A DNA stretch of 64,000 nucleotides, from positions 68,013 to 132,012 of the forward strand of contig LCHW01000001.1 in NCBI GenBank assembly GCA_001000675.1, in the 5' to 3' direction. Position numbers and translations under genes: made by a program. Position 1 is the first letter of the stretch, and the number at the start of each line of letters is the position of its first letter. A model generated the notes under the pieces. The model was not told the DNA's origin and searched no databases. It worked only from the letters and a program-made list of their open reading frames with translations. This DNA comes from Candidatus Wolfebacteria bacterium GW2011_GWE2_44_13. GTDB lineage: Bacteria > Patescibacteriota > Minisyncoccia > UBA6257 > UBA9933. This document shows, one piece after another, positions 2,885 through 62,692 of the stretch.

Positions 2885-3226
2885 ATGAAAAAACCAATTG
2901 AAGTTACATTTGAAAATTTTAAGGAAGAAGTGCTTGAGTCAGATATGCCAGTGCTGGTAGATTTTTGGGCACCGTGGTGTGGGCCGTGTGTTATGATGAT
3001 CCCTGTGCTCGATGCGCTTTCCGCTGAGATGGGTGATCAGGTAAAAATCGCAAAGCTGAATGTGGATGATGCGACTGCGCATGAGATTGCATCAGAGTAC
3101 CATATTCAAAGCATTCCCAATATGCATTTGTTTAAGGGTGGAAAGTCGGTAAAAAGTTTTGTGGGATATCGACCAAAGGAAGTGCTTGCAGAAGAGCTGC
3201 GAGAGGCGCTCGCTAGCGACAGGTAA
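2885..3226 (+). CDS. trxA: Thioredoxin
   Basis: WAPWCGPC active site; about 110 aa. Confidence 0.9.
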   Translation: MKKPIEVTFENFKEEVLESDMPVLVDFWAPWCGPCVMMIPVLDALSAEMGDQVKIAKLNVDDATAHEIASEYHIQSIPNMHLFKGGKSVKSFVGYRPKEVLAEELREALASDR

Positions 3227-3250
3227 TAGGGAATGATGTAAAATCACTAT

Positions 3251-4189
3251 ATGGAAATTACGAAACAAGAACCACAGATATTTGATACGGCTATTGTTGG
3301 CGCTGGTCCTGCTGGGCTTTCTGCCGCAGTGTACCTTTCTCGCTACGCGTTAAAGCCAATTGTTATTGGTGAGCTATTTGGCGGTACTGCCACGAAATCA
3401 CATGAAATAGGAAACTGGCTGGGGGATGAAAAAATAGCTGGATTTGATTTTGCAAAAAAGGCTATTGAACATGCAAAGAGCTACGGTGTTCCGTTTGAAG
3501 TCGCTCGTGTGCGCGGAGTTGAGAAAGAGGATCTTTTATTCGCACTCGAGTTAGATAATGGAACAATGGTGCATGCTCGATCTGTTTTGCTTGCTACTGG
3601 CACAGAGCATAGACATTTGAATATTCCAGGAGAGCAAGAATTTTCAGGGAAAGGCGTTTCTTTTTGTGCAACATGTGACGGGTTTTTCTTTGGAGATAAA
3701 ACAGTTGTGGTTGTTGGAGGAAGTGACAGCGCTGCTATCTCTGCGTTGTATCTCGCCGATATTGCTAAAAAAGTGTACGTAATTTATCGCGGAGAAGAAC
3801 TGCGGGCGGAACCGTTTTGGAAAAAGCGCATAGCAGAAAATGAAAAAATAGAAGTTGTCTATAATACAAATATTACTGAAATAAAAGGGGAGGCAACTGT
3901 CAGTGAAATTGTGCTTGATCGGGAGTATGATGGAGCTCAGTCAATTGCAGTGGATGGTGTATTTGTTGAGATAGGAGCTGACCCGAAGATTGATTTTGCC
4001 GAGGCACTACAACTACAGATTGATAATGAAGGATATGTCGTTGTTGATAAGGGCTGTATGACTTCGGCTGATGGCGTTTGGGCTGCGGGCGATATTACGA
4101 CAGGGTCTAATAAGTTTAAGCAAATTGTCACTGCCGCTTCTGAGGGAGCGATCGCCGCAAATGGAATACAGATGTGGTTGAAAAGATAA
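3251..4189 (+). CDS. trxB: Thioredoxin-disulfide reductase
   Basis: FAD-binding GAGPAGLSAA, redox-active CATCDG, and NADPH-binding GGSDSA motifs. Confidence 0.85.
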   Translation: MEITKQEPQIFDTAIVGAGPAGLSAAVYLSRYALKPIVIGELFGGTATKSHEIGNWLGDEKIAGFDFAKKAIEHAKSYGVPFEVARVRGVEKEDLLFALELDNGTMVHARSVLLATGTEHRHLNIPGEQEFSGKGVSFCATCDGFFFGDKTVVVVGGSDSAAISALYLADIAKKVYVIYRGEELRAEPFWKKRIAENEKIEVVYNTNITEIKGEATVSEIVLDREYDGAQSIAVDGVFVEIGADPKIDFAEALQLQIDNEGYVVVDKGCMTSADGVWAAGDITTGSNKFKQIVTAASEGAIAANGIQMWLKR

Positions 4190-7299: not shown

Positions 7300-7330
7300 A
7301 AAGCGGTTCGCCTTGGCGAACCGCTTTTTG
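7300..7330 (+). terminator. Rho-independent terminator
   Basis: gcggttcgcc-ttg-gcgaaccgc followed by tttttg. Confidence 0.7.
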
Positions 7331-7352: not shown

Positions 7353-7576
7353 TGTCATTCCGGCCTATGCCTGCCTGCCGGTAGGCAGGAGCCGGAATCT
7401 AGTATTCCGCATTGTCATCCTGAGCTTGTCGAAGGATCTGTAGTATGTAAATCATATTCCTCGATAAACTCGGGATGACAGCGCTTCCGGATTGTCATCC
7501 CGTACACAGTTTACGCTGGGTTTATCGAAGTGATACGGGATCCAGGACCCTGTCATTCCCGCGGAGGCGGGAATCC
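7353..7576. repeat. Tandem array of four different hairpin repeats, each led by TGTCAT (7353-7400, 7413-7438, 7493-7543, 7551-7576)
   Basis: Each unit is TGTCAT + stem + loop + complementary stem + C, with unrelated stem sequences. The last unit is the canonical tgtcattcccgcggaggcgggaatc. Confidence 0.7.
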
Positions 7577-7875
7577 ATCTTTTCGTACTTTTTCAAAAAA
7601 GTACGTCAAAAACTTCGAGCGCCGAAAATGGCGGAATAGGCTCGAAAATTTCTAACAAAACTACGAACTCGCTCCTGCGCACCGCTCAGACACCGCAGTT
7701 TTTGAGGAAATTTTTGTCGCCCATTTTGTCCGCCATTTTTACGGATGCTCGGGGGATGTGGGTAAAGAAGGTGGTTTTTGATCCGAAATATTCCCATGTT
7801 CGTAAAAGAGGGGACGCTCTTTCGGAGGGCGTTTTTACAGGCTCATGCGTAAAATACAAAAGAAGGGCACTTGAA
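7577..7875. repeat. Composite roughly 300-bp intergenic repeat element (variant b); related copies at 49267-49590 and elsewhere
   Basis: Shares long identical blocks with 49330-49590 (cgccgaaaatggcggaataggct...ctaacaaaactacgaactcgctcctgcgcaccgctcagaca) and the 3' end atccgaaatattcccatgttcgta with copies at 47.8, 51.2 and 54.3 kb. Confidence 0.7.
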
Positions 7876-7907: not shown

Positions 7908-7980
7908 GCGCCTATAGCTCAGTTGGTAGAGCATCTCGCTTATACCGAGACGGTCCTAGGTTCGAGTCCTAGTGGGCGCA
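7908..7980 (+). tRNA. tRNA-Ile (anticodon TAT)
   Basis: GCGCCTA TA GCTC AGTTGGTA GAGC A TCTCG CTTATAC CGAGA CGGTC CTAGG TTCGAGT CCTAG TGGGCGC A folds as a clean cloverleaf with anticodon loop CUUAUAC. Confidence 0.8.
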
Positions 7981-7984
7981 CAGT

Positions 7985-19351: not shown

Positions 19352-19382
19352 AAAACACCAGCGCTCGCTGGTGTTTTTGTTT
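19352..19382 (+). terminator. Rho-independent terminator (family aacaccagcgc-N-cgctggtgtt, repeated three times in the island)
   Basis: Hairpin followed by tttttgttt. Near-identical copies at 20719 and 23390. Confidence 0.7.
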
Positions 19383-20704: not shown

Positions 20705-20718
20705 AGCGAGCTATAGCA

Positions 20719-20746
20719 AAACACCAGCGCGCGCTGGTGTTTTTTA
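20719..20746 (+). terminator. Rho-independent terminator (same family)
   Basis: aacaccagcgcgcgctggtgtt followed by ttttttat. Confidence 0.7.
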
Positions 20747-23389: not shown

Positions 23390-23423
23390 CCTTAAAACAC
23401 CGGCGCATGCTGGTGTTTTAAGG
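23390..23423 (+). terminator. Rho-independent terminator (same family)
   Basis: ccttaaaacaccggcgcatgctggtgttttaagg. Confidence 0.65.
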
Positions 23424-40094: not shown

Positions 40095-40240
40095 TAAACG
40101 AATGGGCTGTCATTCCCGCGGCCTGCTTCGTGTAAGAATAAATACTCCGCAGGCATTTCGGCACGTTGCACGCTCGCTCTACTCGCTAGCAACGCCAAGT
40201 CAAGGCGGGAGTCCATTTCCATTTTTAAAAATATCTTTTC
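40095..40240. repeat. Degenerate copy of the composite intergenic repeat (partial R1 hairpin + cggcacgttgcacgct...ctagcaacgccaag module)
   Basis: gctgtcattcccgcgg... and cggcacgttgcacgctcgctctactcgctagcaacgccaag match modules of the 51.0 and 54.1 kb copies. Confidence 0.6.
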
Positions 40241-47589: not shown

Positions 47590-47618
47590 AAAGGGACGCA
47601 TATGCGTCCCTTTTGTTA
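47590..47618 (+). terminator. Rho-independent terminator
   Basis: aaagggacgcatatgcgtccctt followed by ttgttatttt. Confidence 0.65.
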
Positions 47619-47639
47619 TTTTCGTGAATACGGGGATCT

Positions 47640-47865
47640 ATTTCCTTGTTCTTTTTTAAAAAAGAACCAAAAATCACGAACCGAAAATATTTTGGGGTCG
47701 CCTCCAAAACGGCTGAAGCTCGGAACTCGCACGCCAAGAGTAGGCTCGCTCAAACACCGAGCTTCTTTCGATATTTTTCCAGCGCCCTTGATCCGAAATA
47801 TTTCCATGTTCGTACGAAGGGGGAAGTCCCTATCTTTGTCATTCCCGCGGAGGCGGGAATCTATT
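47640..47865. repeat. Composite intergenic repeat element (variant a) ending in the R1 hairpin tgtcattcccgcggaggcgggaatc (47837-47861)
   Basis: Shares ccgaaaatatttcgg...gaagctcggaactcgcacgccaag...caccgagcttctttcgatatttttccagcgccct.gatccgaaatatttccatgttcgta with 51.05-51.19 kb and 54.19-54.33 kb. Confidence 0.7.
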
Positions 47866-49215: not shown

Positions 49216-49665
49216 AAAGGAGCGCGTACGCGCTCCTTTGTCATTCCCGTGAAAACGGGAATCCATCTCCTCTGCACTTTTTCAAAAAAGTGTATCCGTC
49301 GGATTCGGAATGGAATAAGCGAATCCGACAGCCCGGCACGTTGCACGCTTGCTTCGCTCGCTAGCAACGCCAAGGGCAAAACTTCGAGCGCCGAAAATGG
49401 CGGAATAGGCTCTAAAATTTCTAACAAAACTACGAACTCGCTCCTGCGCACCGCTCAGACAACGTAGTTTTTGACCTGCCTGCCGGTAGGCAGGGGAAAT
49501 TTTTATCGCCTATTTTGTCCGCCATTTTTCGGATGCTCGGGGGATACAGATTAATACAGTTTATTAATCCGAAATATTTCCATGTTTGTACATAGAATGC
49601 GCTACCGTTGTCATTCCCGTGCATTGCCTTGTCGTAGCTTTACGCGAAGACAGGAAAACGGGAAT
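49216..49665. repeat. Composite intergenic repeat: hairpin, R1 (49239-49266), variant-b module (49267-49590), and a long-loop R1 (49603-49665)
   Basis: Near-identical to 7577-7875 over more than 150 bp, and to the 50.94-51.05 / 54.10-54.19 kb modules (gtcggattcgg...cgaatccgacagcccggcacgttgcacgctt). Confidence 0.7.
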
Positions 49666-49706
49666 CCATATATCGCAATATATGCTAATTTTGGTATACT
49701 AAACGC

Positions 49707-50873: not shown

Positions 50874-50900
50874 TAAAAAACCGACGTACGTCGGTTTTTT
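50874..50900 (+). terminator. Rho-independent terminator
   Basis: aaaaaaccgacgtacgtcggttttttt. Confidence 0.75.
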
Positions 50901-50907
50901 TGTAGTG

Positions 50908-51195
50908 TTATCCCCGTGAAAACGGGAACCCAGGTTTTCGCACTTTTTCAAAAAAGTACCTCCGTCGGATTCGGAATGGAATAATCGAATCCGACAGCCC
51001 GGCACGTTGCACGCTTACTTCGCTCGCTAGCAACGCCAAGGGCAAAACTTCGAACCGAAAATATTTCGGGGTCGCCTCCAAAACGGCAGAAACTCGGAAC
51101 TCGCACGCCAAGAATAAGCGTGCTCAAACACCGAGCTTCTTCCGATATTTTTCCAGCGCCCTTTATCCGAAATATTCCCATGTTCGTAAATAAAG
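50908..51195. repeat. Composite intergenic repeat (degenerate R1, palindrome gtactttttcaaaaaagtac, hairpin gtcggattcgg..cgaatccgac, variant-a 3' module)
   Basis: Collinear with 54070-54330 at high identity. Confidence 0.7.
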
Positions 51196-51275
51196 AATAT
51201 TATTTTTTGCTTGTGCGAGGATAACGTACTGTGCAGTATAAAAAACGATTCACTGAGTGAATCGCTTTTTCTTGT

Positions 51276-53958: not shown

Positions 53959-53999
53959 GTACATAATGGCACCCAATACGGGTGCCATTTTTTTACATT

Positions 54000-54410
54000 G
54001 GCATTCCTGCCCGTTCGACAGGTTTAGGGTAAACTGCGGCGGGAATCCATTACCACTTCTAAGACAATATTCTTTCATACTTTTTAAAAAAGTACTTCCG
54101 TCGGATTCGTGTCGGAGTAATCGAATCCGACAGCCCGGCACGTTGCACGCTTACTTCGCTCGCTAGCAACGCCAAGGGCAAACCTTCGAACCGAAAATAT
54201 TTCGGGGTCACTTCCAAAACGGCTGAAGCTCGGAACTCGCACGCCAGGGGTAGGCGTACTCAGACACCGAGCTTCTTTCGATATTTTTCCAGCGCTCTTA
54301 ATCCGAAATATTTCCATGTTCGTAGATACAAGAGAGTAATTCTGTCATTCCCGCGGAGGCGGGAATCTATTTAATTCTGGATTCCCGCCTCCGCGGGAAT
54401 GACAGAAAGC
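54000..54410. repeat. Composite intergenic repeat, plus a 68-bp perfect palindrome formed by two inverted R1 hairpins (54343-54410)
   Basis: tgtcattcccgcggaggcgggaatctatttaattctggattcccgcctccgcgggaatgaca is self-complementary. The module at 54070-54330 matches the 47.6 and 51.0 kb copies. Confidence 0.75.
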
Positions 54411-54989: not shown

Positions 54990-55100
54990 GTTTTATCTAT
55001 TGCCGAATAAAAAGACTCTGGGTTCCTGTTTTCACGGAAATGACAATACAAAAGAATATAGCGAAAAATTCTGACATTCCCGCGCAGGCGGGAATCTAGC
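54990..55100. repeat. Two R1 hairpin copies (one inverted: ttcctgttttcacggaaatgaca; one direct: tgacattcccgcgcaggcgggaatc)
   Basis: Sequence match to the R1 consensus. Confidence 0.6.
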
Positions 55101-55171: not shown

Positions 55172-56173
55172 ATGATTAGTAACTACGAGTTTATCAAGAC
55201 GCAGGCATTCGAAGTTTCGTCTGCACTATTTCGGTGCACCGAATTATTTTCTCAAGACAAATTGCGCGCAGAAATTGAAGCTGCTGCAGTTGATATGGTC
55301 GCAGATTATGAAACAATACACAGCACAATAGGGGATGAATTTCCTCGTATTGAGAAGTTGATTGCACTTATCCGATTAGCGGAATCTACCGGACAAATTG
55401 CATCCATTAATGCGAACGTACTGTATCGAGAACTTGATAACCTTACTAAGGCGATTCGGTTAGAAGTTGTTGACCGCCGCGAACGGAAAAACATCACGGC
55501 ATCTTTGGAAAAGATGTTCACAAATTCCGAATATGCAAAGAAGCTCGCCACTACTGCAACGGTACTAAGTGAGCCAGTTAATTCGGCAACTACACCTTCT
55601 CCTACTCCTGTCATTCCCGTGAATATGGCAATCCAGAGCCCTGATAATTCGGCAAAACAAAAATTAAGCGATACTCAGTTCGGCAATATTGAATCCCTGC
55701 TTTCTGCAGCGGTCCAATCGAGTCAGGCAATGGAAGCCTTAGCAGCTCCTGTTAATCCGGCAACAGTTCCTGTACACGAAACGCTTAACGCGTTTTTGCG
55801 ACAAGACGTTCCGGCAAACGCGACACAGGGGGCTTCGGCAACTACCGAACCCACTCTTGCTAAACAGGGAAATGCAATCCAGCAGGCAACGGCGACCACG
55901 GCCGTTCGTCCGGCAATTGCTCCTGTGCAAGCTACTTCGGCAAACCCAGCGCAAGTCGGTTCGGCGAGCTCACCACAAGTAGGTTCATGGCAGCATGTCA
56001 TTTTACAAAAAGTGAAGGAGCTCGGCCAAACAACAACAAAAGAGTTAACTGCCAGCTTCCCAGAAATCAGCGAACGAACTATTCGTTTCTATCTGCAAAA
56101 GCTTGTTGATAACCAGGCAATAGATCGTATTGGTTCAACTGGTCCAGGAGCAGCATATCGAGCTAAAATATAA
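55172..56173 (+). CDS. Hypothetical protein with a C-terminal winged-helix DNA-binding domain and a central Ala/Pro/Thr/Gln low-complexity region
   Basis: C-terminal ...LGQTTTKELTASFPEISERTIRFYLQKLVDNQAIDRIGS resembles DeoR/MarR-type wHTH. The start is probably MISNYEF. Confidence 0.4.
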   Translation: MISNYEFIKTQAFEVSSALFRCTELFSQDKLRAEIEAAAVDMVADYETIHSTIGDEFPRIEKLIALIRLAESTGQIASINANVLYRELDNLTKAIRLEVVDRRERKNITASLEKMFTNSEYAKKLATTATVLSEPVNSATTPSPTPVIPVNMAIQSPDNSAKQKLSDTQFGNIESLLSAAVQSSQAMEALAAPVNPATVPVHETLNAFLRQDVPANATQGASATTEPTLAKQGNAIQQATATTAVRPAIAPVQATSANPAQVGSASSPQVGSWQHVILQKVKELGQTTTKELTASFPEISERTIRFYLQKLVDNQAIDRIGSTGPGAAYRAKI

Positions 56174-56214: not shown

Positions 56215-56245
56215 CATTGTCATTCCCGCGGAGGCGGGAATCCAG
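56215..56245. repeat. R1 hairpin repeat
   Basis: ttgtcattcccgcggaggcgggaatccag. Confidence 0.7.
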
Positions 56246-56700: not shown

Positions 56701-56740
56701 CTGAAAAAACGAAAAGCGAACAATGAATGATTGGATTGGT

Positions 56741-56775
56741 ATTCCCGTGAAAGCGGGGATTCATCCCCATGAATC
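56741..56775. repeat. R1-like hairpin variant (attcccgtgaaagcgggga-ttcatccccatgaatc)
   Basis: Match to the R1 family, with a second small hairpin. Confidence 0.5.
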
Positions 56776-56805: not shown

Positions 56806-59800
56806 ATGAGCATAGTATTTAAAAAGCTTTCTATCGTTGCTCTCTCGCTCGCCCTTTTGGCAGGCGTTGTTTCAACTCCGGTTGCAAACGGCGCTACGAA
56901 CGAGGAATTACAGGCACAGATCTCTGCTATGACAGCGCAGATCAATGCCCTCCTCGCTCAGCTTGCTGGAACTCCGGCGACAGTAGCAACAACCCCAGCA
57001 ATGTCTTCATACACGTTTACCCGCAACCTCACTGTTGGGTCAACTGGTGCAGATGTTATGGAACTCCAGAAGTTCCTCGTTTCCTCAGGGCACTTGGTCC
57101 TTGCAAATCCAACCAACTATTTTGGTAACATGACCAAGGCAGCGTTGGCAAAGTTCCAGGCAGCTAATGGCATTTCGCCAGCAGTTGGATACTTCGGACC
57201 ACTCACCCGTACTTCAGTGAACGGAATGATGACCCCAGTAACTCCAGTAACTCCAGTTACTCCAGTAACTCCAGTAACTCCAGTAACTCCAGTTGTAACG
57301 TCTGGCGCAGTATCTCTTGCTTCTACTAACCCAGCAGCAGGATACATCGTAGCAGGACAGGCAGGAGCACGTTTGGCAGCTATCCAGTTCTCAGGAGCAG
57401 GATCAGTAACCAGCCTTGTTCTTAAGCGCACTGGTCTTTCGACCAATGACGTATTGACCAATGTCTACTTGTATGATGGAAATACTCGCATCACCGATGC
57501 AGCTTCTATCAATGCAGAAGGCGTAATCACTTTCAACAATCCTTCAGGGCTGTTCACAGCTCCTAAGACCGTTGAAGTTCGTGCAGATGTAACCTCGACC
57601 GCTACTGGACAGACCACAGTTGCAATTGAAGTTTCTTCATACACTATGTCAGGTGGAACTGCGACTGCAGTTACCGGCATAGTTGGAAACACGATGCAGA
57701 TGTCAACCGCAGCTTTGGCCACGGTTACTATGCAGACCAATAACCAAAATCCGAACAACACTACTTCCTTGAGCGTTAATGCTGGTACAGTTAACCAGAA
57801 CGTTTGGGATGTAACCTTGAACGTCGGAACTCGTGCAGTATCGTTGAAGGGACTTACATTTAAATATGTAGGATCAGCTTCATCTGATGCAGTAGGAAAC
57901 CTTGGCGTTTACGTTGACGGAGTAAAGGTTGGTTCAACTGCAACCGTAAATGCCATGGGCCTTGTTGCCTTTGACTTTACTGCAGCCCCAGTAACTCTTA
58001 CGACAGGAGCACGCACTATTCAGTTGCGCGGTGACTTCGTAAAGGGTTCGAACCGATCTGCTCAGTTCTACGTACAGAACTTGGCTGACTACATGATTGA
58101 AGATACGCAGGTTATGGGAGCATTTATTTCCCCAACCAGCGGAGCAAACGTCTATGGTTACAACTTTAACATCCAGTCAGGATCTATCGTTGTAAATCAG
58201 GATCAAACCTACTCAGCTACTCAGGTAGTTGGTGGATCTTCAAACGTTAACCTTGGTAAGTTTACCTTCAAGGCATATGGTGAAGATGTAAAAATCGAAA
58301 CCTTGGTCTTGACCCCGTCAGGAACTTTCACTGGATGGACTTCTGGTGCAAATATCCAGAATGTAACCTTGTATGTAAATGGTGCAGCTGTTGGTTCTTC
58401 ACAGAACTGGAGCCCAACCACTTCAGCAACACTTACTTTCAATCCAGGTGCAAACATGATCATTCCAGCTGCAGGAGTTTCTACTCTTGAAGTACGTGGA
58501 GATCTCCGCGATGGAGCTGGTGTGAACTACACTGGAGGAACCGTACAGGTTGACGTAACTTCCTTTGTTGGACGAGGACAGCAGTCACAGGCAACTGTTA
58601 CAAGCGCCTCTGCAACAGGACGAAACTTGACCATTGGTTCAGCCACAGTTAGCTTCTCAAAGACTGGTGGATTCTTGGGTTCAACTGTTACTCCAAATGC
58701 AAACGCAAAGATTGGTTCATTTACACTTTCAAACTCAAACTATGAGGATGTACGCGTAACGAACTTGTCTGTTGGCTTGCTCTTTGGTGCAGGTATGACC
58801 ATCACCAACGTTTCAAACCTTCGCGTATCTGACTCAGCAACTATCGTTGCTCAGCCAACCGCAGACAGCAACTTCTCTATGGATGTTGTTGTTCCTATGA
58901 ACTCAACTAAGGTATTCGAGATCACTGCTGACCTCGGTTCAACTGCCTCTACAACGGCAACTGTTACCGCAAATGCAACCTCTTCATACCGTGGCGTAAG
59001 TTCAGGAGTTTCTACAACTGCAGGTGCAGCTGGTGTAGCTATGACAGCTAACACCGCTACTCTTGTAGCAGCAGATGTTACCAAGTTGTCTTCATCAGCT
59101 CCTTCTCAACTTGTTGTTGGAGGAACTGTTATGCCAACCGTTATTTATAACGTAAAGTCATCAACTGCTCCAGTAACAATCACGGAATTGACCTTTGACG
59201 CCGCTACTTCAACCGATGCAATCACTGCTATTAAGGTTGGTGGTGTTACAAAGACAATCACTGCTTTGACTGGAAACGTTGTCACTGGTTTGAACATTGC
59301 TGTTCCAGCTGGTGCGTCAGGATTGAACATTCCAGTTGATGTTACTTTTGGAACTGTAAACACAAATGGTGGAATCGCTTCGCAGCCTACTGCGGTCGAC
59401 ACTATTACGCTTACTGCCGTTAAGTACACCAGTGGAAACACTACTGATACCGTGACCACAGCTTCTACTACGCTTGTTTCTAACGCTATGCAGCTTGTTG
59501 CTTCTAAGCCAAGCTTGACCGTTAATGGAACACAGCAGGGTGGATTGTTGCTTGGTTCTGAGAATAAGATTGGTGAAGTTACCGTTATTGCAGATGCAAA
59601 GGGTGACATCAAGTTGAATCTCTTGACATTCAATATTGGATACTCAGGATTCTCAACTGGTCCAGCTCTTTCAGGTGTTCGCATCGCAGATGGTTCAACA
59701 ACTATCAGCGGAACAACTGCTACGACAACAACGTCAACGACCTCACCAGTTATTACTGTTGACTTCGGTGATGCCGCAACCAGCAGCGATGGATACTCTA

Positions 59801-60003: not shown

Positions 60004-60275
60004 GCTAACGCTTACTGTTTGATTGAATTCTCTACCCTTGAGACACTTCGGTGGCTCAAGGGAAAACATAAAATTTTTGTATCGGTCTCACTACTCCTGT
60101 AATAGGTGTGTGTGACTCGGCTAGCCTCCTCTTGTCTTTCCGCCCAAGGCGGACAGGTAGGGGAGGGTGGTCCGAGAAAAGCTGATGCAATAACAAAAAC
60201 ATTGAATCTTTTATCGAAAAGGATAAAAGAATAAAAATTATTGGTCCGTTGATTCACGCAAGCCTTCGAGACCTG

Positions 60276-60535: not shown

Positions 60536-60600
60536 GGGGGTGCCCGCCGTACGGCGGGCACCCCCCTCATGTATTGTCATTCCCGCGCAGGCGGGAATCC
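60536..60600. repeat. GC-rich 14-bp-stem hairpin (gggggtgcccgccg-tac-ggcgggcaccccc) followed by R1 hairpin 60575-60600
   Basis: Perfect inverted repeat, then ttgtcattcccgcgcaggcgggaatcc immediately upstream of the GIY-YIG gene. Confidence 0.65.
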
Positions 60601-60616
60601 AGTACAATAAAATAAT

Positions 60617-60902
60617 GGACCGATACTACTATGTGTATTTATTGGCGAGCAGGAAAAATGGAACTCTTTACGTAGGGGTTACTAATAATTTAAAAAGAAG
60701 AATAGCTGAACATAAGGATGGATGGGTTGGAGGATTTACAAATGATTACGGCGTAAATAGATTGGTATATTTTGAGCAAACAACAGACGTACGAAGTGCT
60801 ATAGCGCGTGAGAAGGCTATAAAGAAATGGAATAGACGATGGAAGATAGATTTAATTGAACAAGAGAATAAAGAATGGAATGATTTGTTTGAAATAATAT
60901 GA
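60617..60902 (+). CDS. GIY-YIG nuclease family protein (small URI-domain endonuclease, COG2827-like)
   Basis: YYVYLLASRKNGTLYVGVTNNLKRRIAEHK has the GIY-YIG core (YxYxL...GxxYxGxT.NL.RR...H). 95 aa. Confidence 0.85.
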
Positions 60903-60917
60903 AATGAATTCTAGCGC

Positions 60918-60948
60918 ATTGTCATTCCCGTGAAAACGGGAATCCAGA
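60918..60948. repeat. R1 hairpin (ttgtcattcccgtgaaaacgggaatccagag) immediately downstream of the GIY-YIG gene
   Basis: Match to the R1 consensus. Confidence 0.7.
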
Positions 60949-61000
60949 GTGCGAGTTCTTTGTATTGTACGGCATCTTTTTGCAGTATCGTCTTTACATT

Positions 61001-61038
61001 TTGTTACAATATTTCGCGACCGCGAAATATTGTAACAA
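61001..61038. repeat. 38-bp near-perfect palindrome ttgttacaatatttcgcg-ac-cgcgaaatattgtaacaa (copy 1)
   Basis: The 18-bp arms are exact reverse complements. An identical copy lies at 61788-61825. An extra half-site gattgttacaaaaatc is at about 61074. Confidence 0.85.
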
Positions 61039-61163
61039 TCGTTTATTTATAATTGTGTAATTAGATAATAACGAAAAGATTGTTACAAAAATCTTTCTGA
61101 ATTAGTATGCAATACGGGGTAGTTATGTGATATACTTTTAACAGTTTTTATCACACGCATTTT

Positions 61164-61748
61164 ATGTATACCGACGACATATTAGGCATGATAGAAGAGT
61201 TTGATGATATCACCACGGGTGGCCTCTTTTCTTTGTTATTTTCGTCTTATTCCGATCTTCGTAAAAGAGGTAATGATTGGTTGCCTCCAGATGAGTTTAA
61301 AGCCGCGCAGGAGCGCTCAGAGCGCGATATACGGCGCAAGCGCTACCAACGGATGGTAAATTTAGTCTGCTATTTAAAGCGACAAGGCCTTGTTGAGCAA
61401 AAGGAAAATAGTATTTTAAAGTTAACGGAAAAGGGGCTTTTGCGATTACAGAAAAACGCGACTGTTTCAAGATACGTTCCCCTTTCTAAGGGATATAAAA
61501 CAGAAGACGATCATCTAAAGGTTGTTATTTTTGATGTGCCTGAGAAGCGGAGAAAGCATAGGGAATGGCTTCGCTTCAGTTTGCAGAATCTTGGTTTCAA
61601 GTTGCTTCAAAAGAGTGTTTGGATTGGAAAAACAAAATTACCACAAGAGTTTTTTGATCAATTACATGGGTGGGAATTATTACCGCATGTACATATTTTT
61701 GCGGTGCAAGAAACTGGATCAATTGGATTTGAAGATAGGGAGCATTAA
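61164..61748 (+). CDS. PaaX-like transcriptional regulator (N-terminal winged helix + C-terminal Cas2/VapD-like fold)
   Basis: wHTH-like VNLVCYLKRQGLVEQKENSILKLTEKGLLRL. C-terminal LKVVIFDVPEKRRKHREWLRFSLQNLGFKLLQKSVWIGK resembles the PaaX C-domain / Cas2-like beta-alpha-beta-beta pattern. Confidence 0.45.
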   Translation: MYTDDILGMIEEFDDITTGGLFSLLFSSYSDLRKRGNDWLPPDEFKAAQERSERDIRRKRYQRMVNLVCYLKRQGLVEQKENSILKLTEKGLLRLQKNATVSRYVPLSKGYKTEDDHLKVVIFDVPEKRRKHREWLRFSLQNLGFKLLQKSVWIGKTKLPQEFFDQLHGWELLPHVHIFAVQETGSIGFEDREH

Positions 61749-61787
61749 TGATACCCGAGTATTTTTTGAAAGAATGCTATTATTTAT

Positions 61788-61825
61788 TTGTTACAATATT
61801 TCGCGACCGCGAAATATTGTAACAA
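61788..61825. repeat. 38-bp palindrome, copy 2 (identical to 61001-61038)
   Basis: Exact sequence identity with copy 1. Together they bracket the PaaX-like gene. Confidence 0.85.
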
Positions 61826-62071
61826 AATGATAAATAGATGTGATATTTTAAAAATAGAAAAAGCGATATTTGTATACTGCTAATAAGGTTATGTATAAAA
61901 AGTTGCAGAATATTTTCTGTGTGTTAAAATGAATTCACTTGCGTCGCGTTATGTTCACTTTGTTTCGATATGATCGATGAATATGATCGACAATAATTAC
62001 ATAGCATAATATACATCATATTCTTACGAGCGGGGTCTTTGACACCCGTTTTTATTTTTATAAAAACTGAT

Positions 62072-62692
62072 ATGGAAGAATTAGAAAAAAACGATATTGC
62101 TCAACAATATTTTGAGAAAGATGCGGAGATTTTAGGAGATAACGGCGTACACCCGAAGGATGTTAGTGAGCAGGGAGGTGGAGTGATAAAGAGCAGCTAC
62201 TGGAAATTTATCGGTGGTTTTTTTGCGCTATTACTTGTTGGGTTTATCGGCATACCGTTTATTGGAAATTATGTGCAGGAGCAAGAAGATAAGGCACAAG
62301 AAGAAAAGTTTGCCGCTGGTGTGCAGTATATGCAAGAAATGCAGGAACGTTTGAAAAACGATACTGATGGTGGCGCAACCGCACAGGAAACGTTGGCGTT
62401 ATTTACAGCTGCGCTTAAAAAAGGAGATATTGAGCAAGCAAACAAATATTTTGTTATTGAGCCAAAAGATCGACAGGAGGGCTTGATTGATGTTTTAAAA
62501 AATATACAGGAATCCGGAAGGTTTGAAGAGTTTGTGGGGTATGTGGAAGACGTAGATTTTATGTCCAACAGCTCTAGCGGATCCGTTGCTATTTTTAGGA
62601 ACATAAATAAAGAAGGCATAGCTGATGTGTCTCTAGAAATAACCAAAGATAATTATTCTACTGTATGGAAAATAGAAGGACTTATGTTTTAA
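62072..62692 (+). CDS. Membrane-anchored hypothetical protein
   Basis: Start MEELEKND. One TM (FIGGFFALLLVGFIGIPFIG). The C-terminal soluble domain is unassigned. Confidence 0.4.
   Translation: MEELEKNDIAQQYFEKDAEILGDNGVHPKDVSEQGGGVIKSSYWKFIGGFFALLLVGFIGIPFIGNYVQEQEDKAQEEKFAAGVQYMQEMQERLKNDTDGGATAQETLALFTAALKKGDIEQANKYFVIEPKDRQEGLIDVLKNIQESGRFEEFVGYVEDVDFMSNSSSGSVAIFRNINKEGIADVSLEITKDNYSTVWKIEGLMF

Follow-up and report, generated by a model that had tools for sequence, protein, structure and literature searches.

We have analysed a 64,000-nt stretch (the window) of the genome of Candidatus Wolfebacteria bacterium GW2011_GWE2_44_13, a family of short hairpin repeats named R1 (TGTCATTCCCGYG-loop-CRCGGGAATCYAG) that is scattered through it, a cluster of differently stemmed hairpins at positions 7353-7576, and a small gene, ssn, at 60615-60902. 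Our results show that the core of R1 is the dRS3 repeat, first seen in Neisseria, and that its oriented form is the NTS motif, one of the "Ssn-related motifs" (SRM) of Chenal et al. 2025 (Nat Commun, PMC11893778). Very probably R1 and the other TGTC-framed hairpins of the window are SRMs that are bound and cut as single-stranded DNA (ssDNA) by the Ssn nuclease encoded in the window itself. A first-pass annotation of the window had recognised a REP/BIME-like family of oriented hairpins, which is right, and had judged it not assignable to any described element, which is not: descriptions of the family date from 2025, its core was already known in 2000, and we report here a further member in a bacterium of the Candidate Phyla Radiation (CPR). 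Four things are established here: what the motif is, what the gene is and where it lies, that the two occur together across phyla, and that the repeats turn over between strains.

Identity and distribution of the R1 repeats

About half of the dRS3 copies have been shown to be part of a longer oriented motif, NTS (CGTCATTCCCGCGMAVGCGGGAATCYRG), and SRMs are present in many phyla, where they flank ssnA, a gene coding for a 94-aa single-domain GIY-YIG protein (PMC11893778). SsnA binds the hairpin as ssDNA only and in one orientation, and cuts a few nt upstream of it; cutting depends most on the 3 nt located 5' of the palindrome, and binding on the C directly 3' of it (PMC11893778). Binding and cleavage restricted to ssDNA have been published for the Neisseria and the Wolbachia enzymes, and Rickettsia is listed among the SRM-rich genera (PMC11893778).

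In all the intact R1 copies the core is exactly that of dRS3, ATTCCC-N8-GGGAAT, and the copy at 60575 departs from the NTS definition at a single position (27/28 identical). The published SRM pattern, HGTCWYN(0-2)YYVSBRHN(0-5)WNVSBRGN(0-2)RNCYNB, is satisfied by the copies at 49239, 60575 and 60920, against 0.18 expected, and the degenerate copies fall 1-3 bases short of it. The flanks TGTC and C(C/T)A are kept in the window and in 77 unique hairpins found beside ssn homologues elsewhere, and the positions that were critical in the published work on SsnA are those of the invariant frame (TGTC, C) of the array at 7353-7576. When the repeat sequences were searched as text in the literature, only the Ssn paper and one gonococcal paper came up.

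R1 is as abundant as had been claimed. Scanning of the window for TGTCATTCCCGYG with at most one mismatch gave 14 matches (0.11 expected), scanning for TGTCATYCC gave 14 as well (0.89 expected), and a looser scan together with a repeat finder raised the total to ~18 copies, for a chance expectation of ~0.1. The positions listed for R1 by the first-pass annotation all exist, to within a few bases, and two copies, at 47614 and 55609, had been overlooked. Sixteen copies are on the + strand and two on the - strand; all but the copy at 55609 are intergenic, according to the list of open reading frames and the called genes of matching public contigs (the window is identical to a 541-kb contig from a groundwater metagenome), and 17 of the 18 lie within the 13 kb upstream of ssn or just past it. 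Because the + bias matches both the direction of the genes and the positive GC skew of the window, it cannot be assigned from the window alone to replication or to transcription. The copies outside the array are the following:

40108-40120, + strand: left arm of R1 alone (partial copy), fused to part of the mosaic repeat
47614-47864, + strand: degenerate R1 (47614-47641), mosaic cargo, intact R1 (47837-47864)
49239-49666, + strand: GAAA-type R1 (49239-49266), mosaic cargo, R1 with a 41-nt loop (49609-49666)
50906-51205, + strand: degenerate R1 (50906-50933) followed by mosaic cargo
53999-54404, + strand: large-loop R1 (53999-54047), mosaic cargo, inverted R1 pair
54343-54370 (+ strand) and 54377-54404 (- strand): the inverted R1 pair
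55018-55045 (- strand) and 55072-55099 (+ strand): divergent R1 pair
55609-55636, + strand: R1 in frame within the gene for a 333-aa protein, translated ..PVIPVNMAIQSP..
56218-56245, + strand: R1 with a GGAG loop, intergenic
56737-56764, + strand: degenerate R1, also present in the sister genome
60274-60301, + strand: R1 with a GAAA loop, inside a 41-bp single-unit indel
60575-60602, + strand: R1/SRM copy GTCATTCCCGCGCAGGCGGGAATCCAG, 12 bp upstream of ssn
60920-60947, + strand: R1/SRM copy, 17 bp downstream of ssn, which fits the published SRM pattern

The ssn gene and its association with the hairpins

The gene that R1 flanks on both sides, at 60575 and 60920, is the sole ssn copy in the window:

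60615-60902, + strand: ssn (KKT43527.1), annotated as 'Endonuclease' in Ca. Wolfebacteria bacterium GW2011_GWE2_44_13, 95 aa

Its product consists of one GIY-YIG domain (Pfam PF01541, residues 4-78, E = 7e-17) and no other domain. As reference for SsnA we used the 94-aa orthologue of Neisseria gonorrhoeae and not the N. meningitidis protein itself; with this orthologue the window protein shares 52% identity over 90 aa, its full length (pairwise E = 2e-33), and residues Y8, Y19 and E66 align with the gonococcal catalytic Y6, Y17 and E64. The comparison also gave E = 6e-23 against 7.3 Gb, where the published homology criterion is E < 1e-10. The gonococcal ssnA locus was taken from NZ_CP119140.1 (L123), a 2.17-Mb 'plasmid' record of PLSDB that is evidently an N. 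gonorrhoeae chromosome, and ssnA is followed there by two NTS copies. No informative name for the window nuclease was obtained from NCBIfam, PADLOC or PHROGs, and a sequence search of the PDB gave as the nearest structures UPF0213 proteins, which were matched weakly (E = 3e-5).

Close homologues of the window Ssn, of about 95 aa, number ~1800. In a scan of one genome per species we sampled 80 loci with an ssn homologue (L013-L092) from more than 10 phyla, among them Proteobacteria, Planctomycetota, Ignavibacteria, Omnitrophota, Chloroflexota and several CPR groups. Hairpins of the form GTC-stem-C with stems of at least 6 bp were present in 78 of these 80 loci. With stems of at least 7 bp, their density was 5.37 per kb at 200 bp or less from ssn versus 0.25 per kb elsewhere. 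Half of the loci and more (50/80) have hairpins on both sides of the gene; the upstream copy is on the + strand in 50 of 58 cases and the downstream copy on the - strand in 57 of 66. The upstream and downstream stems differ in 32 of the 45 loci that have both copies. In these 45 loci the two flanking copies usually share their loop class, either 4-nt GNRA-like or 5-nt CTTGA. The Ssn proteins are 55-72% identical across phyla. One Parcubacteria genome (L038) carries two ssn paralogues 2 kb apart, at 923-1249 and 3001-3303, each bracketed by its own stem type, ATCCCGTA and ATTCCCGC respectively.

The first-pass annotation had proposed to look for a RAYT or IS200-like Y1 transposase as the partner of the repeats; the partner we find is instead the small GIY-YIG nuclease Ssn. 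It had also stated that its view would fall if the motif proved to be a known REP family with an identified mobilising transposase. What we have found, a named family with an identified protein, is essentially that case, although mobilisation by this protein is only a possibility. We regard it as highly improbable that the repeats are classical REP/BIME elements moved by a RAYT (a Y1 transposase of the IS200/IS605 type), or that they are the target of an IS110/Piv-type recombinase, as dRS3 is. The short oriented palindromes, the mosaic clusters and the strand bias would suit the former, and the known use of dRS3 as integration target by Neisseria filamentous phages would suit the latter. However, the conserved 5' frame is GTC and not a head of the REP GTAG type, and the family is already accounted for by the association with ssn just described. 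Moreover, no Y1_Tnp or other transposase or recombinase Pfam domain was found among the called genes of ~2.4-10.3 kb, of 40.4-64 kb and of the 7 kb past the end of the window (about 38 kb).

Selection on the folded strand

When folded as ssDNA, the R1 units have z scores of -3.7 to -4.7 relative to shuffled sequences; their stems are of 8 bp, and in the 15 aligned copies of the window 95% of the cells are paired. It had been claimed that the stems covary, cccgc/gcggg versus cccgt/acggg. The alternation itself is correct, but within the window it amounts to a single pair, the strong compensation being that seen in other genomes. The loop-closing pair alone changes on both sides, being U-A in 7 distinct copies and C-G in 5, and it travels with the loop, U-A with GAAA and C-G with GGAG or GCAG. 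The covariation within the window is that of two sub-families, could derive from one event, and taken alone is thin evidence for structural selection.

Among the 80 loci, by contrast, there are 59 distinct stems, all of them perfectly compensated. Conservation extends to features that were outside the search terms, namely the base that precedes GTC, the opening AT of the stem, the loop sequences (GAAA/GAAG/GCAG or CTTGA) and the CAG that trails the hairpin. Since the first search required pairing, we repeated it with a definition based on the flanks only (NGTC-N20-CYAN). The pairing of these candidates was bimodal, with a background mode at 2/8 and, apart from it, 71 unique sequences that peak at 7-8/8. 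Because of this bimodality, structural selection is real at the level of the family.

The claim that selection acts on a folded single strand was thus borne out; the RNA option offered with it was not, the relevant strand being DNA, as the SsnA of Neisseria does not bind the RNA version of the hairpin (PMC11893778). This last result also counts against the idea that the hairpins act mainly as RNA and serve the co-oriented genes as terminators, processing sites or stabilisers of 3' ends, an explanation that we consider improbable. It would agree with the placement of nearly all copies, which lie between genes and run in the same direction as these, with the one copy (7555-7574) that scores as terminator-like in a lax scan, and with the sub-threshold matches of the inverted pair to models of small RNAs from Francisella (FtrB) and Wolbachia (WsnRNA46). 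However, the copies are followed by CCAG or CCAT and not by the T-run of an intrinsic terminator, separate terminators lie just upstream of repeats (e.g. 7305-7329, 50875-50901 and 53968-53995), and one copy is in frame within a protein-coding gene. In addition, conservation across phyla includes frame nucleotides that lie outside the stem, and these go together with the gene of a DNA nuclease.

The hairpin array at 7353-7576

The tandem cluster of differently stemmed hairpins at 7353-7576 is as it had been described, with four units that start with TGTC and end with C, and the view of it as a mosaic of different units was right; to these we add a fifth unit, degenerate and inverted. A frame search (GTC, perfect stem, C) found eleven units with 8-bp stems in the window; four units are those of the array, starting at 7354 (ATTCCGGC), 7414 (ATCCT), 7494 (ATCCCGTA) and 7552 (ATTCCCGC). 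The units are:

7353-7399, + strand: unit 1, SRM-like, TGTC-ATTCCGGC...GCCGGAAT-C; -14.9 kcal/mol and z = -3.95 when folded as ssDNA
7413-7438, + strand: unit 2, TGTC-ATCCT-GAGCTTGTCGA-AGGAT-C, 5 canonical pairs
7456-7480, - strand: unit 3, inverted and degenerate TGTCATCCCGAGTTTATCGAGGAAT, without the trailing C; related to GGTCATCCCGAGCCTGTCGAGGGATC of the sister genome (L119, at 4954)
7493-7542, + strand: unit 4, TGTC-ATCCCGTA-(33-nt loop)-TACGGGAT-CCAG; fold marginal relative to shuffles
7551-7578, + strand: unit 5, canonical R1/SRM TGTCATTCCCGCGGAGGCGGGAATCCAT, stem ATTCCCGC/GCGGGAAT; -8.9 kcal/mol, z = -3.7

Despite their different stems, the common frame of the array is TGTC-AT...AT-C. 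A mosaic repeat of ~260 bp (7551-7814) opens with unit 5 as its first module. A reading as a CRISPR-like or tandem repeat is disfavoured, the units differing in length and in sequence and having the frame alone in common. Terminator and promoter readings of the array were considered and set aside.

The stems of the array that are foreign to R1 occur beside ssn homologues in other genomes. The ATTCCGGC stem lies immediately upstream of an ssn homologue in L072 and is also present in another such locus, L059; the ATCCCGTA stem brackets one of the two paralogues of the Parcubacteria genome L038 (at 898 on the + strand and at 1250 on the - strand). Unit 2 is a copy of a widespread variant family, GTCATCCTGAGC-N5-CGAAGGATC, whose version with canonical pairs, ATCCTGAG/CTCAGGAT, adjoins ssn in the Saccharibacteria genome L045. 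The frame of unit 2 is identical in the uvrB gene of L038, where it is in frame, and in 26 stretches of viral contigs; it is this recurrence of the 26-nt element in unrelated contigs, and nothing else, that makes the unit credible. Its stem has 5 pairs, to which a possible tandem G.A and 1-2 more pairs could be added. By these occurrences, the three foreign stems are bona fide SRM types. In the cluster, four to five SRM sub-types form a mosaic in the manner of a NIME or BIME, gathered in this strain at one intergenic site.

A second hairpin, CCTGCCTGCCGGTAGGCAGG (7370-7389), is nested in the loop of unit 1. The same 20-nt mini-hairpin is found, identical, at 49475-49494, inside a mosaic repeat; it constitutes a small module of its own, mobile or recombining.

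Several points weigh against the proposal that all these hairpins are substrates of the window Ssn. The copies that satisfy the strict SRM pattern are only 3 of the ~18 R1 copies, and the commonest sub-family, with the GGAG loop, fails the pattern at one loop position. The fold of the unit at 7413 is no better than that of shuffled sequences (z = -0.09), and the 26 viral-contig loci brought up no ssn near an element of the ATCCT type. Changes in the palindrome that kept the structure abolished the activity of the Neisseria SsnA (PMC11893778). For that reason the three heterologous stems may not be substrates of the window Ssn, and the window holds no second ssn gene to account for them. Finally, that the Wolfebacteria Ssn binds and cuts its hairpins is presumed by analogy with its homologues, and the restriction of transforming ssDNA is a role demonstrated in N. 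meningitidis only (PMC11893778).

The mosaic repeat and the gene-less inverted pairs

The non-coding mosaic repeat, of 220-360 bp, has five copies in the window (7551-7814, 47614-47831, 49239-49600, 50906-51205 and 53999-54341). Each is laid out as an R1 hairpin, a GTACTTTTTCAAAAAAGTAC hairpin, optional modules and the end TTGATCCGAAATATTYCCATGTTCGTA; the cargo is of about 190-330 bp, and three of the five copies are directly followed by another R1. At least two of them lie within blocks that are missing from the sister genome. The mosaic repeat has no match in Rfam, where the gathering thresholds left four tRNAs only in the window, none at the repeats.

Inverted SRM pairs without a gene, of 62-77 bp, were observed at 54343-54404 in the window and at L002 379-445, L005 17848-17909 and L119 15303-15379. 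They look like the ends of an SRM(+)-ssn-SRM(-) unit without the gene, in the manner of a MITE. An RNA gene at the inverted pair was considered and rejected, the only matches being sub-threshold ones to generic long-hairpin models (microRNA precursors, FtrB, WsnRNA46).

Turnover between strains

As sister genome we used GCA_000993695.1 (GWC2_39_22, Ca. Wolfebacteria), through the L119 and L002/L003 comparisons; its FtsH protein is identical to that of the window and its Ssn 99% identical, and the compared flanks of the two Wolfebacteria genomes are about 89-99% identical. Aligned with L002/L003, a block of 511 bp (7353-7863) with the array, a mosaic repeat and a terminator-like hairpin is missing from the sister, and the indel starts exactly at the T of the first TGTCAT. 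Also missing from it are a block of ~415 bp, from the SRM at 53999 to the inverted pair ending at 54404, the R1 copies at 55045, 55072 and 56218 at those positions, and the 41-bp unit that contains the copy at 60274. Conversely, the sister alone has an inverted pair in the csoR-trx spacer, a 116-bp insert, located after the LTD gene, that contains an inverted pair, a 1.06-kb RhuM/Fic cassette bordered on either side by an SRM (L119 17083-18228 vs L005 17848-17909), and a - copy downstream of ssn. At this last place the window has a 985-bp PaaX_M-like cassette, which begins right after the ...CCAG of the 60920 copy and holds the following gene:

61164-61748, + strand: PaaX_M-like gene, in the window strain only (region 60920-62072 compared with L119 10306-10577)

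Other strains diverge exactly at the R1 copy at 50906 and carry there a different large-loop SRM. At another strain-variable spot, which also begins at an SRM, a LAGLIDADG-type gene stands beside the HSP20 gene in other strains (L008 1575-2267; L119 61-753), and the window has a mosaic repeat and a tRNA-Leu there.

Coding sequences are affected as well. The orthologous 333/340-aa protein has different in-frame SRMs at different places in the two strains, read VIPVNMAIQ in one (window 55609-55636) and GHPEPVEGSA and VIPAEAGIQ in the other (L119 4954-5060 and 5244-5271), and an in-frame SRM-type hairpin inside the uvrB gene of Parcubacteria (L038 182-207) is read VILSEVEGS. SRMs mark sites of frequent gain, loss or replacement; transposition is not thereby shown.

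One account of this turnover, possible if on balance doubtful, is that SRM-ssn-SRM is a selfish mobile element, of which the solitary hairpins, the gene-less pairs and the bounded blocks would be non-autonomous derivatives; their movement would pass through a single-stranded intermediate and be driven by Ssn, or by functions of the host at the sites where Ssn cuts. The same idea was raised by Chenal et al. (PMC11893778); it is compatible with the identification of the repeats as SRMs and offers another explanation of their abundance. The orientation of the flanking copies, + upstream (50/58) and - downstream (57/66), resembles that of terminal inverted repeats, and the gene-less inverted pairs at 54343/54404 and L002 379-445, the clean presence or absence between strains of the 41-bp unit and of the 116-bp, ~415-bp and 511-bp blocks, and the location of the 1.06-kb RhuM/Fic and 985-bp PaaX_M cassettes at SRM borders all fit with it, while the 55-72% identity of the proteins across phyla suggests horizontal spread. 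On the other hand, GIY-YIG enzymes hydrolyse DNA without a covalent intermediate, so that no strand-transfer chemistry is known for them, and a consistent target-site duplication was not seen. Furthermore, several of the 'indels' are segment replacements, which fit equally well with recombination at the repeats, and without an outgroup a deletion in the sister and an insertion in the window are indistinguishable.

More speculatively, and we think this unlikely, SRMs could be the junctions of a GIY-YIG-driven system of ssDNA cassette exchange in ultra-small CPR genomes, with several Ssn/SRM specificities coexisting in a genome. RhuM/Fic genes, PaaX-like genes, non-coding modules and in-frame peptide segments would be swapped at the SRMs, with a logic like that of integron attC sites or of IS200/IS605 ends, and the coexistence of specificities would explain the arrays of different stems.

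Possible mechanism and significance

For the reading that we favour, SRMs recognised by the window Ssn, we propose the following mechanism. On ssDNA, each SRM unit would fold into an 8-bp hairpin; Ssn (60615-60902) would bind this hairpin with its fixed flanks, GTC on the 5' side and C on the 3' side, and would then cut the single strand a few nt upstream. Selection would act on the folded, protein-recognised shape, and for this reason the stems would change by compensated pairs only while the frame remained constant. By extrapolation from N. meningitidis only, the role of the system may be to cut incoming or exposed ssDNA at SRMs, shaping recombination nearby.

An "unassignable repeat" thus becomes a specific candidate enzyme-substrate pair in an uncultivated CPR bacterium, and the recently described Ssn/SRM system is extended to the Patescibacteria. 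In these bacteria, with their very small genomes and their dependence on DNA uptake, gene exchange could be strongly shaped by a nuclease that cleaves incoming ssDNA at genomic landmarks. The SRM-bounded indels, whether cassettes or in-frame insertions, bear on how the repeats multiply, and the mixed stems of the array could serve as a natural set of substrates on which to map the specificity of Ssn, of interest for ssDNA tools. To the natural history of the system we add mixed-stem arrays, SRM-bounded cassettes, in-frame copies and, in a related lineage, co-resident paralogues.

Other features of the window

A tRNA-Ile with anticodon UAU lies at 7908-7981; the sister genome has it too, and the differences between the two in the anticodon stem and the T-stem are compensated. 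The UAU anticodon is unusual for a bacterial tRNA-Ile. Near-identical terminator-like palindromes (AAAACACCAGCGCTCGCTGGTGTTTTT), distinct from the SRMs, follow several genes (19352-19378, 20718-20744, 23394-23420 and 50875-50901), and a 9-bp tandem repeat (ACTCCAGTA, ~7 copies) is located at 57232-57294, in a 1065-aa gene with a peptidoglycan-binding domain.

Comparison with known systems

Rickettsia palindromic elements (RPE) can sit in frame within protein-coding genes. They are palindromic, as is the window copy found in frame in a gene, and we set them beside it by description only; RPEs are longer, about 100-150 bp. With the REP/BIME-RAYT and IS200/IS605 systems the window shares short oriented ssDNA hairpins, mosaic clusters and a gene flanked by its own repeats. 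In contrast, the SRM enzyme belongs to the GIY-YIG and not to the HUH/Y1 class, and acts by hydrolysis and not through a covalent tyrosine intermediate.

The likeness to dRS3 and the NIMEs is closer. The core ATTCCC-N8-GGGAAT is shared, the repeats bracket non-coding modules of 50-400 bp in mosaic intergenic arrays, and they are sited at the borders of strain-variable segments. In NIMEs the 20-bp repeat flanks repeat units of 50-150 bp, to which the cargo of the window is likened by layout only, and neither a filamentous prophage nor a Piv-type recombinase was seen here.

With NTS/SRM, the window shares the motif itself, GTC-ATTCCCGCG-loop-CGCGGGAAT-CYAG (27/28 in its best copy), the hairpin with oriented flanks, the intergenic clustering, and the location of repeats on both sides of a GIY-YIG gene of ~94 aa. 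It differs in that the dominant sub-families of the window (GGAG and GAAA loops, T-A closing pair) lie partly outside the NTS and SRM patterns and that the host is a Ca. Wolfebacteria of the CPR/Patescibacteria, with a small genome, from a group unmentioned in the main text of PMC11893778. It also differs in that, within one array, it stacks several of the stem types.

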